In this document: piece after piece, positions 47,774-62,869 of the stretch
Layout: each line of letters starts with the position of its first letter
Position numbering within the stretch: position 1 is the stretch's first letter
Translations under genes and position numbers: made by a program
The notes under the pieces: model-generated
Told to the model about the DNA's origin: nothing
The model's input: only the letters and a program-made list of their open reading frames with translations
Database searches by the model: none
Assembly (NCBI GenBank): GCA_964291675.2
Contig: OZ219866.1
Location: 2,432,001-2,496,000, forward strand
Source of the DNA: Alphaproteobacteria bacterium
GTDB taxonomy: Bacteria; Pseudomonadota; Alphaproteobacteria; MPNO01
Reading direction: 5' to 3'
DNA: 64,000 nucleotides

Positions 47774-48520
47774 TCAGTGCCGGACAAGCAGGCGCCCGTA
47801 GCCTTCCACCGCGATCGCCGATCCCATCGCCCGCAGGCAGCGCCAGAGCGTCGCCTGGTTGCTGGTCACCACGGGCTTGCCGAGCTCGTCCTCGAGGCGT
47901 TCGATCAGGTCGAGCGACGGCAGGTTGGTGCAGCTTATGAACACCGCATCGGCGTCCGGCCGGTCGACCCGGCGCGCCAGTTCCCGGGTGGTCTCCAGGG
48001 GAACCCGGCCGATGCCGGCGCGCTCGGACGCGGTCCTGCCGAGCCCGAGACCTTCGACGGAGACGACGTCGAGGCCGTGCTCGGTGAGCCATTCGGTCTC
48101 GCGCCGGTTGACGAAATCGGTCCTGGGCGTGGCGAGCGCGATGTGCCGCGCGCCGAGCGCGCGGAGGGCGGCGACGACCGCATCCGAGGTCAGCACCGCC
48201 GGCGCGCCCGTCATCCGCGTCATCGCCTCGGTCAGAACCTCGCCGGGGAAGAAATAGGTGCACGACGTGCAGCCGAAGGCGATCACGTCGACACCCGCCG
48301 AGCCCAGATCGCGAGCTGCCCCTTCGACGTTCTCGGCGATCTGCCGGTAGAGCGCCGGCGCCTGCGGCCCGTCCTGGAAGGCGCGCGCGACGTGGACCGC
48401 GAGACCCGCCGGGGCCATTCGATGGAATTCCGGCTCGATGCTGGTGTTGGTCGAGGGGCAGACCAGCCCGATCCTGCCGAGCCCGGCATAGGGGCCGGCG
48501 GCGGGAAGGCTATCGGCCAT
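47774..48520 (-). CDS. Maleate cis-trans isomerase / Asp-Glu racemase family protein
   Basis: IGLVCPSTN, both catalytic Cys (FGCTS, ISCTNL), KPVVTSNQA. Start at 48520 overlaps the upstream stop. Confidence 0.88.
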   Translation of the reverse strand: MADSLPAAGPYAGLGRIGLVCPSTNTSIEPEFHRMAPAGLAVHVARAFQDGPQAPALYRQIAENVEGAARDLGSAGVDVIAFGCTSCTYFFPGEVLTEAMTRMTGAPAVLTSDAVVAALRALGARHIALATPRTDFVNRRETEWLTEHGLDVVSVEGLGLGRTASERAGIGRVPLETTRELARRVDRPDADAVFISCTNLPSLDLIERLEDELGKPVVTSNQATLWRCLRAMGSAIAVEGYGRLLVRH

Positions 48521-49598
48521 CCGCGCCGCCCGCATCGGCGATGCACGCGCACAACCCGCCGCCGGGCGGCGCCTGGTGCTCGGTCCCGCCGCTGACGAAG
48601 ACCCGCCCGGTGCCGAGGATGCCGCCGATCACCCCGCTGGCGGTCGCCCGCATGTGCTTGTCGGGGTCGAGGTCGCTGTGGAAGACGGTCGTGCGTTCGC
48701 CGCGCACCCGCCCGTCCGGCGCGACGCCGGTCTTCACGAACACCGCCCGCAGCCTTTCCGGCGCGGCGATCTCGCCCGACTCGTCGAGGCCGCAGCCGGC
48801 CCTTCGGAACAGGGTCTTCAGCGAACGCGCGTCGAGAATGTCGGCCATCGGTCCGGAGAACACCTTGGTCGACCCGCCGGCGCCCGGCCGGTTGCCCAGG
48901 ACCAGAACCTCGCCAACCTCGACCTCCGTGCCGGAAAAGCTCATCGTCCGCCTCGAATGGCGTTGCAGGTCGGCGCCGATCCGCGTGTCCCCGATCTCCG
49001 CCTCGGTCAATTCGCCCAGCGCCAGCGCGACGCCGAGCGCGGCCGCGCCCCGGGATTGCCCGCTCGACCCGGCCCGGGCGACGACCGCCGGATCGCCGGT
49101 CGCCGCGGCGTCGCGGTGGCTGAGGATCGGGCTCTTGACCAGGACCAGGGCGACCCGATCCGGGGCGAGCCCGGCTTCGGCCATCGCGTCCTCCACCGCG
49201 CCGGCGATCAGGCGGGCATGGGTCGGCGTGACCAGCTCGCCCGCCGTCATCGCCCGGGTCCGCCCGCCGCCGATGACCAGGCGCTCCTCGTCGCCGCCGC
49301 CGCCGTCGGCGATCGCCGCCAGCACGTAGACCACCGGGCTCAGCACGCCCTCGGAGCCGGTCGAGAAAATGAGCGTGGACGCGCCGAGCAACTCCGCGCC
49401 GCCGATTCGTTCGATCGTCGCCTCGGCGGCCGACAGCGCGAGCTCGCGCGAGAAATCGTTGATCGTCGCGGTGCCTTCGGTCTTGGCGACCAGCGCCAGG
49501 CGCGCGATGTCGCCTGTCGGCAGCCCGGAAAGAATGCGTTCGAGCCCCGCCACGTCGCCGGGGCCGTCGGTCGCGTAAGAATCGACATGGACTCGCAT
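48510..49598 (-). CDS. Ring-opening cyclic amide hydrolase (AtzD/barbiturase family), divergent
   Basis: KTEG..NDFSR, S.GSEGVLSP, VKSP, SRGAAALG, DGRVRGER, VFVSGGTEHQAPPGGG. Confidence 0.88.
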   Translation of the reverse strand: MRVHVDSYATDGPGDVAGLERILSGLPTGDIARLALVAKTEGTATINDFSRELALSAAEATIERIGGAELLGASTLIFSTGSEGVLSPVVYVLAAIADGGGGDEERLVIGGGRTRAMTAGELVTPTHARLIAGAVEDAMAEAGLAPDRVALVLVKSPILSHRDAAATGDPAVVARAGSSGQSRGAAALGVALALGELTEAEIGDTRIGADLQRHSRRTMSFSGTEVEVGEVLVLGNRPGAGGSTKVFSGPMADILDARSLKTLFRRAGCGLDESGEIAAPERLRAVFVKTGVAPDGRVRGERTTVFHSDLDPDKHMRATASGVIGGILGTGRVFVSGGTEHQAPPGGGLCACIADAGGADGR

Positions 49599-49613
49599 GG
49601 TCGGGGCGATCCG

Positions 49614-60528: not shown

Positions 60529-61491
60529 TCAGACCAGGAAGCAGGACACGAAGTGCCCGTCTTCCACCTCGCGCAGCGCCGGCTCGCGCAGCCGGCACCC
60601 GTCCTCGGCAAGCGCGCAGCGGTCGCTGAAGCGGCAGCCATCGGGCAGGTTCAGCGGGCTCGGCACGATCCCGGGGATCGCTTCCAGCTTCCCGCCGGTC
60701 CCGCCATAGCCGGGGATCGATTTCAGCAGCCCCACCGTATAGGGGTGCAGCGGGCGGGAGAAAATGATCTCCGGCGTCGCGTGCTCCACGATGCGCCCGG
60801 CATACATGATCGCCACGTCGTCCGCCTGCTCGGCGACCACGCCGAGGTCGTGGGTGATCAGCAGGAGCGCCATGCCGAGCTGGTCCTGGAGCTCCTCGAT
60901 CAGGTTGAGGATCTGCGCCTGGATGGTCACGTCGAGCGCGGTCGTCGGCTCGTCGGCGATCAGGAGGCTCGGGTTGCAGGACAGCGCCATCGCGATCATC
61001 ACCCGCTGGCGCATGCCGCCCGAGAGCTCGTGCGGGTAGTCGTCGACCCGCGCCACGGGATCGGGGATCCTGACCAGGCGGAGCATCTCGATCGCCTTGT
61101 CGCGCGCGTCCTTCTTGCCGAGGCGCTGATGCAGCACGATGGCTTCCTCGATCTGCGTGCCGACGGTGAACACCGGGTTGAGCGAGGTCATCGGCTCCTG
61201 GAAGATCATCGAGATCTCGTTGCCCCGGATGCGCCGCATCCTGGCCTCGTCGAACTCGATCAAATTCTCGCCCCGGTACCTGATCTCGCCGCCGACGATG
61301 CGGCCCGCCGATTTCGGAATCAGCTGCATCGTCGACAGCGCGGTCACGCTCTTGCCGCAGCCCGACTCGCCGACCAGCCCCATGGTCCGGCCTTCCTCGA
61401 TGGCGAAGCTCACCCCGTCCACTGCGCGCAGCTCGCCCTCGCCGGTGAAGAACGACGTCTGGAGGTCCCTGATCTCGATCAGCGTGCCCAT
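60529..61491 (-). CDS. Peptide ABC transporter ATP-binding protein (DppD-like)
   Basis: [34 protein letters not shown]. Confidence 0.93.
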
Positions 61492-61579
61492 CTGCTAACC
61501 TCGCCGCCCGCGACACGGAGTCCCCGGCAGGCTGGCCCGGGACCTCTCGGCAGCGTCGAGGATCGGAGGAGGAAAGCGC

Positions 61580-62869
61580 ATGGGCTCCATGCAGGATGTC
61601 GTCCCTGTTCCGGACGACGGGGGGGTACTGCCGGCCGAGGCCGTGGCGGCGATTGCCAACGGCGACGCTTACCCGGAAACGACCGGCTATTCGAAGAGCG
61701 TCGATTATGTCGATTTCGAAATCTACGGCAAACCCTTCACGCAGGTCGTCATGACGCTGCTGCCCGAGACGCCCCGCCTGCACGCAGGAAGGCGGATCGT
61801 GGTGATCGCGGGGGAGGGCGGGAGCGACAACGGCAACGGGTTCCTTGCGACCTACGAGGGCAGGGAGGGCATCGGACCCTGGCTGGCGAGGCGCGGCGTG
61901 ACCTTCGTGGCGGTGCCGCGCCTGGGCCGGTGGAACTTCTTCGCCGACGGGGAAAGCGGAAGCTGGATCGACATCCCGCTCGGCGAACGCATGCCGGTCT
62001 TCGACCGCCACCGGCCGGAATACTGGCCCGCCGACGCGTACACGTCGCATGTCTCGCAGGGACAGGCGAGCCCGACCGGAAGCGATACCTACAGGCTGCC
62101 GAAAGAGGGCTCGGCTCTTTACGACCACATGCTCGCCGCGACGCCCGATGCCCTGGTCGAAGGCTATCGGCACGGCGTCCGGTTCGCGCTCGCCGCACTC
62201 GGCGTGCCGCGTAGCGGGGTCCTGCTGCTCTATTGGGGGTTCTCCACCGGAGGGCCGTTCCTGTGGGCGCTGGCGCGCTCGATCGCCCCCGACGGCATGC
62301 TGGGATGGGGAACGTCGAGCACCGGCGTCGCCTATTTCCACAGCCGCATCCGAACCGGAAACTTCGACTGGCCCTACGAGAGCTCGGTGCTCCGGGTGCG
62401 CGAGCGCGGGCGGCCCGATTTCCGCTTCTACACCGAACATGTCGATGACGAGGTGCGCGAACGCTGGTGGCGCAAGGCGCTGGCGGCGCCGCGGTTCAAG
62501 TCGATCGAGGATACGACGATGTTCTACAACGCCGCGGCGCTCGCCGAGCATGCCGGACGGCTGTGGATCGCGGATTTCCTGCCGCGGGAAGTACGCGACC
62601 GCGGCTTTGCGGCGCTGATGCGCGACATCCTGGAGCCCTGTTTCCCGGCGCCCGAGCTCCGGACGGTCGCGGTATGGGAGATGAACGGGACGCTCGACCA
62701 GGTCATCCAGCCGGACAAGGTCGATGCCGCGCGCGCGGTCATGGAGCCCTATTGCCGCCGCTACCGGGTCGCGCGCCTCGAAGGCTTCCGCCACGACATC
62801 CTGCACGACACCATCGTCGCGGTCGGGCGGATCTGGCTGAGCGTCGTGGAAGACGGCTATTTCGACTGA
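61580..62869 (+). CDS. Uncharacterised protein X2, distant paralog of X1
   Basis: Strong GGAGGAGG RBS; GEGG, GFSTGGPF, GTLD, late RHD; divergent from the ABC operon. Confidence 0.75.
   Translation: MGSMQDVVPVPDDGGVLPAEAVAAIANGDAYPETTGYSKSVDYVDFEIYGKPFTQVVMTLLPETPRLHAGRRIVVIAGEGGSDNGNGFLATYEGREGIGPWLARRGVTFVAVPRLGRWNFFADGESGSWIDIPLGERMPVFDRHRPEYWPADAYTSHVSQGQASPTGSDTYRLPKEGSALYDHMLAATPDALVEGYRHGVRFALAALGVPRSGVLLLYWGFSTGGPFLWALARSIAPDGMLGWGTSSTGVAYFHSRIRTGNFDWPYESSVLRVRERGRPDFRFYTEHVDDEVRERWWRKALAAPRFKSIEDTTMFYNAAALAEHAGRLWIADFLPREVRDRGFAALMRDILEPCFPAPELRTVAVWEMNGTLDQVIQPDKVDAARAVMEPYCRRYRVARLEGFRHDILHDTIVAVGRIWLSVVEDGYFD

Follow-up and report, generated by a model that had tools for sequence, protein, structure and literature searches.

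A hydrolase-rich gene run in an alphaproteobacterium probably joins two independently conserved catabolic modules

Introduction

The family of cyanuric acid hydrolases and barbiturases, represented by AtzD, TrzD, and barbiturase, comprises ring-opening enzymes of the Toblerone fold in which Ser226 is described, in a report on the Azorhizobium enzyme (PMC4051656), as the nucleophile of the sole absolutely conserved dyad of the family; residue numbers are taken from that report and from PMC6557486. In the ectoine cluster of Sinorhizobium meliloti, eutA encodes an arylmalonate-decarboxylase-like protein and eutC an ornithine-cyclodeaminase-like protein, and the portion of the description drawn on here (PMC3187862) assigns no function to them. 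Relatives of AtzD, EutA, and EutC are encoded at a single locus of an alphaproteobacterial genome, in and beside a run of 13 minus-strand genes that, together with a divergent gene termed X2, occupies positions 47774–62869 of the DNA analyzed here. This DNA, the window, is a stretch of 64,000 nucleotides from contig OZ219866.1 of assembly GCA_964291675.2 (positions 2,432,001–2,496,000 of the forward strand).

The other genes of the run recall two further systems. In DppA, the binding protein of the Escherichia coli dipeptide importer DppABCDF, Asp408 is salt-bridged to the free amino terminus of the dipeptide (PMC3295651). The monoalkyl phthalate hydrolase MehpH has a catalytic triad composed of Ser125, Asp259, and His291; within a pocket of positive charge, Arg126 is essential for recognizing the substrate, the free carboxyl group is bound by Thr152, and His53, Phe56, and Tyr166 touch the aromatic ring (PMC9977937).

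Results

Organization of the gene run

The 13-gene run is best explained as the side-by-side placement of two catabolic modules that are each conserved independently and, in this lineage, lie head to tail on one strand, an explanation to which a probability of roughly 0.6 is assigned. The minus-strand order is dppD-dppF-H4-H3-X1-SBP-dppB-dppC-H2-H1-amidase-AtzD-like-isomerase, where SBP denotes a solute-binding protein, with X2 divergent on the plus strand. This order was established from the open reading frame (ORF) listing, the G+C content at third codon positions (GC3), and Pfam and NCBIfam scans, and adjacent genes of the run are spaced by -35 to +88 bp; an earlier note on this DNA had given exactly this order and had called the spacing tight, which it is. 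Module A extends from X2 through the amidase gene. Module B comprises the AtzD-like and isomerase genes of the run and, beyond it, genes for an ornithine cyclodeaminase (OCD)/mu-crystallin family protein, a fused permease of the tripartite ATP-independent periplasmic (TRAP) type, and a TAXI-family SBP (43024–49598).

Homologous loci (L-numbers) and genomes (G-numbers, G000 being the window genome) were compared for both modules. The X1 scan covered one genome per species and found X1 relatives at 415 places in 185,579 species genomes; 72 distinct loci were kept and searched by tblastn with 14 window proteins. For module B, the flanks of genome matches were fetched and searched by tblastn with the window proteins. 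Conserved synteny, for which the earlier note had proposed a search in other genomes, does exist, and most genes recur with a Dpp importer, although as two blocks and not as one. In L003, L007, L008, L009, and L011, the block stops at the amidase gene, which remains with module A there and in the marine loci, and at least 3 kb of further flank contains neither an AtzD-like nor an isomerase gene; in L003, the next recognizable window gene after the amidase gene is that of an FAD oxidoreductase (window 38407–39927). Among the 78 genomes of the order, which were searched for X1 as well as for the AtzD-like protein, G456, G459, and G475 encode X1 orthologues at 87, 79, and 67% identity and give no AtzD-like match at E ≤ 1e-40, and the module B carriers G410, G408, and G169 give no X1 match at E ≤ 1e-60. 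Within the window genus (12 genomes, including G000), eight genomes have both modules, one (G419) has module B only, and three have neither. Of the eight genomes with both, five (G000, G416, G417, G418, and G424) share the adjacent arrangement of the window; G414 has the modules on opposite strands with 32 kb between them, G420 has them ~1.5 Mb apart, and G421 has module B on the X2 side. Their independent occurrence and varied placement thus mark the 13-gene run as a genus-level juxtaposition of two modules.

The earlier note had instead read the run as one operon for a single, purely hydrolytic pathway, in which a compound with several amide or ureide bonds is imported by the Dpp system, trimmed, opened by the AtzD-like enzyme, deamidated, and isomerized to a dicarboxylate. 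The shared strand and small gaps speak for such an operon, as does the amidase/AtzD-like adjacency, which also occurs in L116 and is spanned by a 399-nt contig, ~90% alike, from the sponge metatranscriptome library X20; this contig attests adjacency, not one transcript. With the AtzD-like and isomerase genes missing from module A in the five loci named above and in all marine loci, conserved elsewhere with their own transporter and an OCD gene in the absence of module A, and separated from module A by 32 kb to ~1.5 Mb in two genomes of the genus, a single linear pathway centered on the AtzD-like ring opener is improbable. The count of eight hydrolases and one isomerase with no redox enzyme is accurate inside 47774–62869 and fails once the OCD gene (45736–46995), the conserved partner of the AtzD-like gene, is included. 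As the AtzD-like and isomerase genes travel with this NAD-type OCD gene and their own TAXI-TRAP transporter with module A absent nearby, neither "no redox enzyme" nor "one imported compound" follows.

Several points weigh against a separation into two modules. The AtzD-like gene starts 15 bp past the amidase stop codon on the same strand with no convincing terminator in between, and the two genes are likely co-transcribed in the window, so that the modules may cooperate in this lineage. Eight of the nine genus genomes with module B also carry module A, yet these genomes are kin. The TAXI-TRAP link is strong only at ≥56% identity and is seen in ~5–6 of 18 metagenome loci of ≥8 kb. Members of the AtzD-like clade elsewhere are often found near an amidase-signature amidase that is ~30% identical to that of the window, and the window amidase could therefore also serve module B. 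Gene calls in the compared loci are heuristic (GC3 or longest ORF), and the residue arguments given below depend on alignments made pairwise, each to one solved protein.

Promoter-like sites in 45500–63300 number 4, compared with 1.3 +/- 1.2 in shuffles, and terminator-like sites 6, compared with 5.6 +/- 2.2; none of either kind lies at a module boundary. Public runs were available as Logan contigs, which give no read-out of expression level, strand, or co-transcription. Two such runs contain 0.82–0.84 of the sampled words, many sponge metagenomes contain small shares, and the sponge metagenome X4 yields contigs of 1–2 kb in which ~3–10% of positions differ from the window.

Module A: X1 within a Dpp-type importer

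In half of the 72 X1 loci (36), two or more Dpp components are encoded at ≥40% identity, and in 30 of the loci four or more. Among these 36 Dpp-linked loci, H-type hydrolase genes are present in 25, an amidase gene in 22, an X2 orthologue (59–92% identity) in 15, a second X1 paralogue in 11, and an AtzD-like gene in 4. The minimal linked form is dppDF-X1-SBP-dppBC (L039–L042, L046, L051, and L052). Given this form and the linkage in 36 of the 72 loci, X1 within a Dpp-type importer constitutes a conserved core, of which the H genes, X2, and the amidase gene are frequent accessories. The loci nearest to the window come from metagenome-assembled genomes (MAGs) titled "Defluviicoccus sp." or "Alphaproteobacteria bacterium". 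Marine MAGs titled Rhodospirillaceae (L045, L047, L055, L056, L058, and L064) contain dppDF, the amidase gene on the opposite strand, X2, X1, SBP, two H genes, and dppBC, with a single H gene in L049. Further amide hydrolases recur in the flanks of these loci, namely proteins of the isochorismatase family, Amidohydro_3, hydantoinase A, and amidase-signature amidases. The other 36 loci lack the Dpp link and are mostly from MAGs titled Binatia, Syntrophobacterales, or Thermodesulfobacteriota, four of them being shorter than 12 kb. No Dpp genes are found in the flanks of the Binatia-type loci L015–L037; in L016, the sole one of these scanned, X1 is accompanied by a MOSC protein and genes of no known family. 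In L070 (Rhizobium sp. P32RR-XVIII, a record without a MAG label), an X1 homologue of 54% identity lies near genes that encode a MarR regulator, a DUF2848 protein, an FAD monooxygenase, an amidase, a protein of the isochorismatase family, and an NMT1-type ATP-binding cassette (ABC) system, a context that resembles N-heterocycle catabolism and is distinct from that of the Dpp-linked loci.

Window genes were fixed by GC3, start-codon inspection, and Pfam and NCBIfam scans; the G+C content of ~69% gives rise to many long spurious ORFs. X2 (61580–62869, plus strand) encodes a 429-residue alpha/beta-hydrolase-like protein with a GFSTGGPF elbow, and all other genes of module A lie on the minus strand. 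The importer is encoded by genes for dppD-type (60529–61491) and dppF-type (59513–60499) ABC ATPases, both with ABC_tran and oligo_HPY domains and the latter reaching NF008453 (411.7 bits; cutoff 408), a family-5 SBP (54782–56314; SBP_bac_5), and dppB-type (53714–54718; BPD_transp_1 and BPD_transp_1_N) and dppC-type (52825–53748; BPD_transp_1 and OppC_N) permeases. Four MehpH-like alpha/beta hydrolases are encoded by H4 (58632–59510) and H3 (57715–58590), both with an Abhydrolase_1 domain, and by H2 (51921–52799) and H1 (51013–51891), the latter assigned by Pfam scan; H4 contains a GHSRGG motif. X1 (56396–57697), within the transporter operon, encodes a 433-residue alpha/beta hydrolase with a GHSTGGPF motif, and the module closes with the gene for an amidase-signature amidase (49614–50984; PF01425, GGSSSG motif). 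Two competing frames, ORF 56373–57683 for X1 and ORF 50981–52276 for H1, were rejected as out-of-frame artefacts of low GC3.

In most of the close relatives among L001–L006 and L008–L011, a second X1 paralogue, ~53–56% identical to X1, lies between H4 and H3. This paralogue is missing from L007 and from the window, where 41 bp separate the two H genes (58590–58632), which suggests either a deletion or a later insertion. In L001, from the same genus, the H2 orthologue is split by an insert of ~2.7 kb (L001:15736–18476), with tblastn matches to residues 1–187 and 181–292 on either side.

Neither X1 nor X2 finds a match in Pfam or NCBIfam scans. Of 8000 candidates scored, 1035 proteins match X1 at E ≤ 0.001, and a precomputed Pfam domain is absent from all 120 of the matches listed. 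A model of X1, built from 30 sequences, has a mean predicted local distance difference test score (pLDDT) of 88.2 and a predicted TM-score (pTM) of 0.90. VIA-align superimposes this model on esterases, lipases, and epoxide hydrolases with VIA Z values of 15.8–18.6 over 224–291 aligned residues, as befits a generic alpha/beta fold, with no single family standing out. Foldseek returns many esterases at low TM-scores only (0.27–0.39), and the ESM Atlas matches of X1 and X2 are only unnamed or "esterase family" clusters. Ser209 (in GHSTGG), Asp370, and His403 are invariant across the 30 sequences, and X1 can be predicted confidently to be a canonical alpha/beta hydrolase, with these residues as its putative catalytic triad. 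The resemblance of X2 to X1 is weak by BLASTP (E = 0.001). The AF2 model of X2 has a low pLDDT of 58.1, which does not suffice for a fold search, and profiles were compared instead. By hhalign, X2 aligns with the X1 profile over 341 columns with a probability of 96.5% (E = 1e-9), from which it is clearly judged a distant homologue of X1. Together with H1–H4, X1 and X2 bring the alpha/beta-fold hydrolases of the cluster to six.

Substrate-recognition residues in module A

The best solved relatives of the SBP are DppA proteins (E ~1e-45), H1–H4 give weak Hydrolase_4 (S33) matches and score 41–56 bits against the proline iminopeptidase model TIGR01250 (cutoff 167.65), and a peptide amidase is among the relatives of the amidase (E ~4e-20). 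Module A could on these grounds be an ordinary system for scavenging di- or oligopeptides, made up of a Dpp permease, S33-type (prolyl) aminopeptidase-like hydrolases, and a peptide amidase, a possibility that the residue patterns make unlikely. Aligned to 1dpp, the SBP has a Ser at the position of Asp408 and keeps an Arg at that of Arg355, presumably the carboxylate-binding residue of DppA. Of 41 full-length SBP homologues from the loci, 38 have Ser at the Asp408 position, three have Ala, Gln, or Thr there, and none has Asp, whereas all 41 have Arg at the Arg355 position. The H proteins are far nearer to a monoester hydrolase than to any peptidase, and every NCBIfam peptidase model remains far under its cutoff. 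For H2, the best solved relatives are the MehpH entries 8hgv (E = 4.1e-37) and 8hgw, with meta-cleavage-product hydrolases following at E = 1e-22 or weaker, and H1–H4 score 39–95 bits against the NCBIfam HsaD and BphD models (cutoffs 400–462). The equivalents of MehpH Ser125, Arg126, Thr152, Asp259, and His291 are Ser-Arg-Thr-Asp-His in 65 of 72 H-family stretches, H3 and H4 included, and Ser-Arg-Ser-Asp-His in the other seven. His53 and Phe56 are not retained, being Ala and Ser in H2 (by alignment) and Asn and Ser in H1, H3, and H4 (read from the sequence).

The best solved relative of the amidase is malonamidase E2 (1ock, E = 1.7e-46), followed by urethanases and then by 6c62, which is titled biuret hydrolase. 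No NCBIfam equivalog cutoff is reached by this protein, including those of the AtzE models NF006631 (134.9 bits; cutoff 461) and TIGR02715 (126.6 bits; cutoff 425.75), AtzE being the amidase-signature enzyme that the earlier note cites as acting downstream of AtzD. Taken together, the patterns in the SBP, H1–H4, and the amidase would fit the cleavage of ester or amide bonds beside a carboxylate in an anionic, non-dipeptide cargo. That this cargo is a phthalate or plasticizer monoester and module A a xenobiotic route is very doubtful, given that the proximity of H1–H4 to 8hgv and 8hgw and the retained Arg126 and Thr152 equivalents are set against the replacement of both ring-contact residues, the lack of phthalate dioxygenase genes in the window flanks scanned, and the wide distribution of module A in marine and sponge-associated MAGs.

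Module B: conserved partners of the AtzD-like gene

Module B opens in the window with the AtzD-like gene (48510–49598, minus strand), followed by the isomerase-like gene (47774–48535, minus strand), the OCD gene (45736–46995, plus strand), and the genes for the fused TRAP permease (44035–45897, minus strand; TIGR02123, 523.7 bits, cutoff 320.65) and the TAXI-family SBP (43024–44022, minus strand; TIGR02122, 209.2 bits, cutoff 84.35). This five-gene set recurs in L086 and L104–L113 and, without the isomerase gene, in L087. The carriers G169, G410, G408, G445, G434, and G436 belong to other genera and to another family, and the G169 locus has a G+C content of 40%. In G059, from another order, the AtzD-like, OCD, TRAP, and TAXI genes are on one strand with no isomerase gene. 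The TRAP permease is co-conserved with the AtzD-like gene at 57–96% identity, as is the TAXI gene. Across the class, 401 genomes were searched with the AtzD-like protein, and 11 match at E ≤ 1e-20, just two of which, besides the window genome, reach ≥48% identity; matches at E ≤ 1e-40 occur in 17 of 78 genomes of the order. The flanks of module B vary, with a metallo-beta-lactamase-fold gene abutting the AtzD-like gene in L104 and L110 and M20 peptidase and amidase genes in L087, and no further constant partner is found in the flanks examined. Large-subunit genes of molybdenum (Mo) hydroxylases of the xanthine dehydrogenase family adjoin the module in two loci (L106:9124–11448 and L111:11700–14033).

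A metagenome scan with the AtzD-like protein yielded 76 loci, 46 of which have an OCD gene within 1.3 kb. The fraction is 28 of 35 where each flank extends for 500 bp or more, not counting L116, where the isomerase gene lies between; the 30 loci without an OCD match mostly have a short flank, and L161, L174, L177, and L187 have room yet none. TAXI-TRAP genes accompany the AtzD-like/OCD pair in the clade at ≥56% identity and at certain loci that are more distant. L132, L139, and L142 combine the pair with TctC or TctA transporters and an amidase-signature amidase, and L139 and L142 add an Amidohydro_1 gene. Two partners of module B are fused in L148, where a single 585-residue ORF (L148:11094–12851) has Amdase and OCD_Mu_crystall domains by Pfam. 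A similar tblastn pattern is seen in L175 at ~11160–12900, Pfam confirmation being for L148 only.

The OCD protein matches PF02423 at 1.8e-39, and all of its NCBIfam matches (cyclodeaminase, archaeal alanine dehydrogenase, and EutC, TIGR02992, 111 bits, cutoff 471.65) are below cutoff. The start of its gene is uncertain. The longest ORF shares 162 bp (45736–45897) with the 5' end of the TRAP permease gene, which is divergent; an ATG at 46003 would yield a protein of typical size (~330 residues) and a divergent intergenic region of ~105 bp, likely regulatory. The intervening ORF u224 (46996–47670), which has no family match and is conserved only in the nearest relatives (L109, 74%; L116, 67%), was assigned to neither module. 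Upstream of module B lie genes for the beta and gamma subunits of a respiratory nitrate reductase, then a peptidylprolyl isomerase gene (34231–37522), and an FAD/NAD-binding oxidoreductase gene with a DctPQM-type TRAP system (38407–42902).

The isomerase-like protein, of the AMDase/EutA-like part of the Asp/Glu racemase superfamily, has Cys at both catalytic positions when aligned to wild-type arylmalonate decarboxylase (AMDase) and to its G74C variant 3ixm (the positions of G74C and Cys188). The two catalytic Cys favor a racemase or isomerase over a decarboxylase, and as this feature is common to racemases it does not single out a maleate isomerase. The latter assignment, made in the earlier note, is not established: the protein is closest to AMDase entries (E = 6e-26 to 3e-24), ahead of the maleate isomerases 2xec (6e-20) and 4fq7 (5e-14), its best NCBIfam match is EutA (TIGR02990, 145.8 bits, cutoff 318), it is below every curated cutoff, and its conserved neighbors are OCD and TRAP genes rather than a maleamate-pathway context.

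Active site of the AtzD-like clade

The AtzD-like protein matches PF09663 over its full length (246.7 bits, cutoff 25; 5e-73) and TIGR02714 at 185.7 bits (cutoff 153.1). Its solved relatives, among them 5t13, 4nq3, 6bum, and 4bvq, include cyanuric acid hydrolases (E = 1e-42 to 1e-39), barbiturase (4e-34), and the "ring-opening amidohydrolase" 5hy0 (1e-28). A search scored 308 of 8000 proteins at E ≤ 0.001, named at the source "ring-opening amidohydrolase" or "cyanuric acid amidohydrolase". One clade member is recorded from Streptomyces avicenniae, a candidate cultured carrier, as is Rhizobium sp. P32RR-XVIII for an X1 homologue. Alignment to 4nq3 shows that the equivalents of Lys40, Arg52, Ser79, Lys156, Arg188, Lys285, Arg314, and Ser333 are retained; in window numbering, the protein has the domain 1 and domain 3 dyads K39/S79 and K289/S336, the arginines R51, R183, and R302, the domain 2 lysine K155, and an SGGTEHQ loop. 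Domain 2 differs at the nucleophile. Phe221 stands opposite Ser226, with Ser222 next to it, in both phmmer and MAFFT alignments, in which a one-residue register shift is possible. In a MAFFT alignment of 114 stretches from the loci, where some genomes are counted twice because loci were fetched twice, 100 stretches reach ≥38% identity, and in these the pair reads Phe-Ser in 97, Val-Ser in 2, and Phe-Thr in 1; the other 14, from more distant members of the family, all have Ser-Ala or Ser-Ser. Ser222 may serve as the nucleophile in place of the missing Ser. One sub-clade has Lys at the Arg188 equivalent and no Glu in the SGGxEHQ loop. The window genome encodes a second family member (L088:9404–10552; contig 2, ~3.12 Mb) that is 33% identical to the first, matches PF09663 at 413 bits, and has the canonical Ser-Ser-Gly; its gene is followed by one with a CoA-ligase domain (PF00549), with an MmeI-type restriction-modification gene close by.

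Family membership, the closeness to solved cyanuric acid hydrolases, and the amidase-signature gene immediately upstream would together accommodate a canonical cyanuric acid route (AtzD/AtzE) or barbiturate route (barbiturase/ureidomalonase), and Mo hydroxylases belong to oxidative pyrimidine catabolism, which the genes near module B in L106 and L111 would fit. Such a route is nevertheless highly unlikely: the AtzD equivalog NF052395 is not reached (246.9 bits, cutoff 360), nor is that of AtzE, the conserved nucleophile Ser position is Phe in 97 of 100 clade stretches, and the constant partners, OCD and a carboxylate transporter, are foreign to both known routes. In addition, general Pfam scans, with no search aimed at these proteins, gave no biuret hydrolase, AtzF, AtzG, or AtzH.

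Discussion

Substrates and a reaction order can be proposed for the two juxtaposed modules from gene content, synteny, and residue patterns. Module A would be an import-and-dismantle unit. Its Dpp-type importer may bring in an anionic, non-dipeptide compound, recognized by an SBP that keeps the putative carboxylate-binding Arg without the Asp for an amino terminus. In the cytoplasm, this compound would be cut by the predicted Ser-His-Asp hydrolases X1, X2, and H1–H4, the last four resembling monoalkyl phthalate hydrolase with the carboxylate-recognizing Arg beside the nucleophile and the Thr kept, and the malonamidase-E2-like amidase would then free ammonia from a carboxy-amide. In module B, the TAXI-TRAP system, a secondary transporter of the carboxylate type, may import a cyclic amide or ureide of acidic character. 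Stereoisomers could be equilibrated by the racemase-like protein, the Toblerone-fold AtzD-like enzyme would open the ring, and the OCD-family enzyme might carry out an NAD-dependent deamination, a cyclodeamination, or an imine step on the amino-acid-like product.

A broader proposal, at somewhat short of even odds, is that the OCD-linked clade with its Phe-Ser motif is a functionally new branch of the Toblerone fold that acts on a natural carboxylated cyclic amide or ureide and not on cyanuric or barbituric acid, in a widespread and undescribed pathway with OCD, the two-Cys racemase, and TAXI-TRAP or tripartite tricarboxylate transporters (TTT), and that X1 and X2 represent a new alpha/beta-hydrolase family devoted to an importer of the Dpp type that takes up anionic esters or amides. 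The clade is sizeable, and it combines constant, distinct partners with an altered active-site motif. The X1 family is unnamed, and half of the loci examined tie the X1 gene to a peptide-type importer with an SBP that appears ill suited to peptides. If this proposal is true, it would add an undescribed catabolic pathway in soil, freshwater, marine, and sponge-associated bacteria. The partners and motif of the clade make the natural role of the cyanuric acid hydrolase/barbiturase fold testable through a defined set of two or three enzymes. Genes of the OCD-linked clade call for caution before they are annotated in metagenomes as those of triazine degraders.

The earlier note had not recognized the gene combination as a described pathway, and the literature searched, with the main family papers (Seffernick 2012 and Peat 2017) outside it, agrees. 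It yielded nothing that combines "ring-opening amidohydrolase" with "cyclodeaminase" or, among the papers listed, cyanuric acid hydrolase with OCD terms, and nothing that joins malonamidase, hydrolase, gene cluster, and ABC transporter.

Comparison with known systems

Module A shares parts with three described systems. It has the five-component architecture of E. coli DppABCDF, with an SBP most similar to DppA, and differs from it in the Ser at the Asp408 equivalent and in the six hydrolase genes interleaved with the transporter genes. H1–H4 share with MehpH (8hgv and 8hgw) and with meta-cleavage-product hydrolases the fold, the triad, the Arg that follows the nucleophile, and the Thr that binds the carboxylate; the window differs in having four paralogues in two tandem pairs within a transporter operon, with the ring contacts not retained. 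The amidase is, like malonamidase E2 from Bradyrhizobium japonicum, an amidase-signature protein, and the match between the two is in two stretches only.

The nearest described pairing to the isomerase and OCD genes of module B is eutA/eutC. The eutABC genes of the ectoine/hydroxyectoine cluster of S. meliloti resemble module B in joining an EutA-like with an EutC-like protein and in serving the catabolism of a cyclic nitrogen compound with a carboxylate (PMC3187862). The window proteins score far under both equivalog cutoffs, the window locus has no EutB, DoeA, or DoeB, and its ring opener adopts the Toblerone fold, whereas ectoine hydrolase is of the M24 type. The likeness to the family of cyanuric acid hydrolases and barbiturases consists of the full-length match, the Ser-Lys dyads, the domain 2 Lys, the three Arg, and the SGGTEHQ loop. 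The window clade is set apart from this family by Phe-Ser-Gly-Thr-Glu in place of the Ser-(Ala/Ser)-Gly-x-Glu of the characterized enzymes and by its ties to OCD and carboxylate transporters rather than to biuret/allophanate enzymes.

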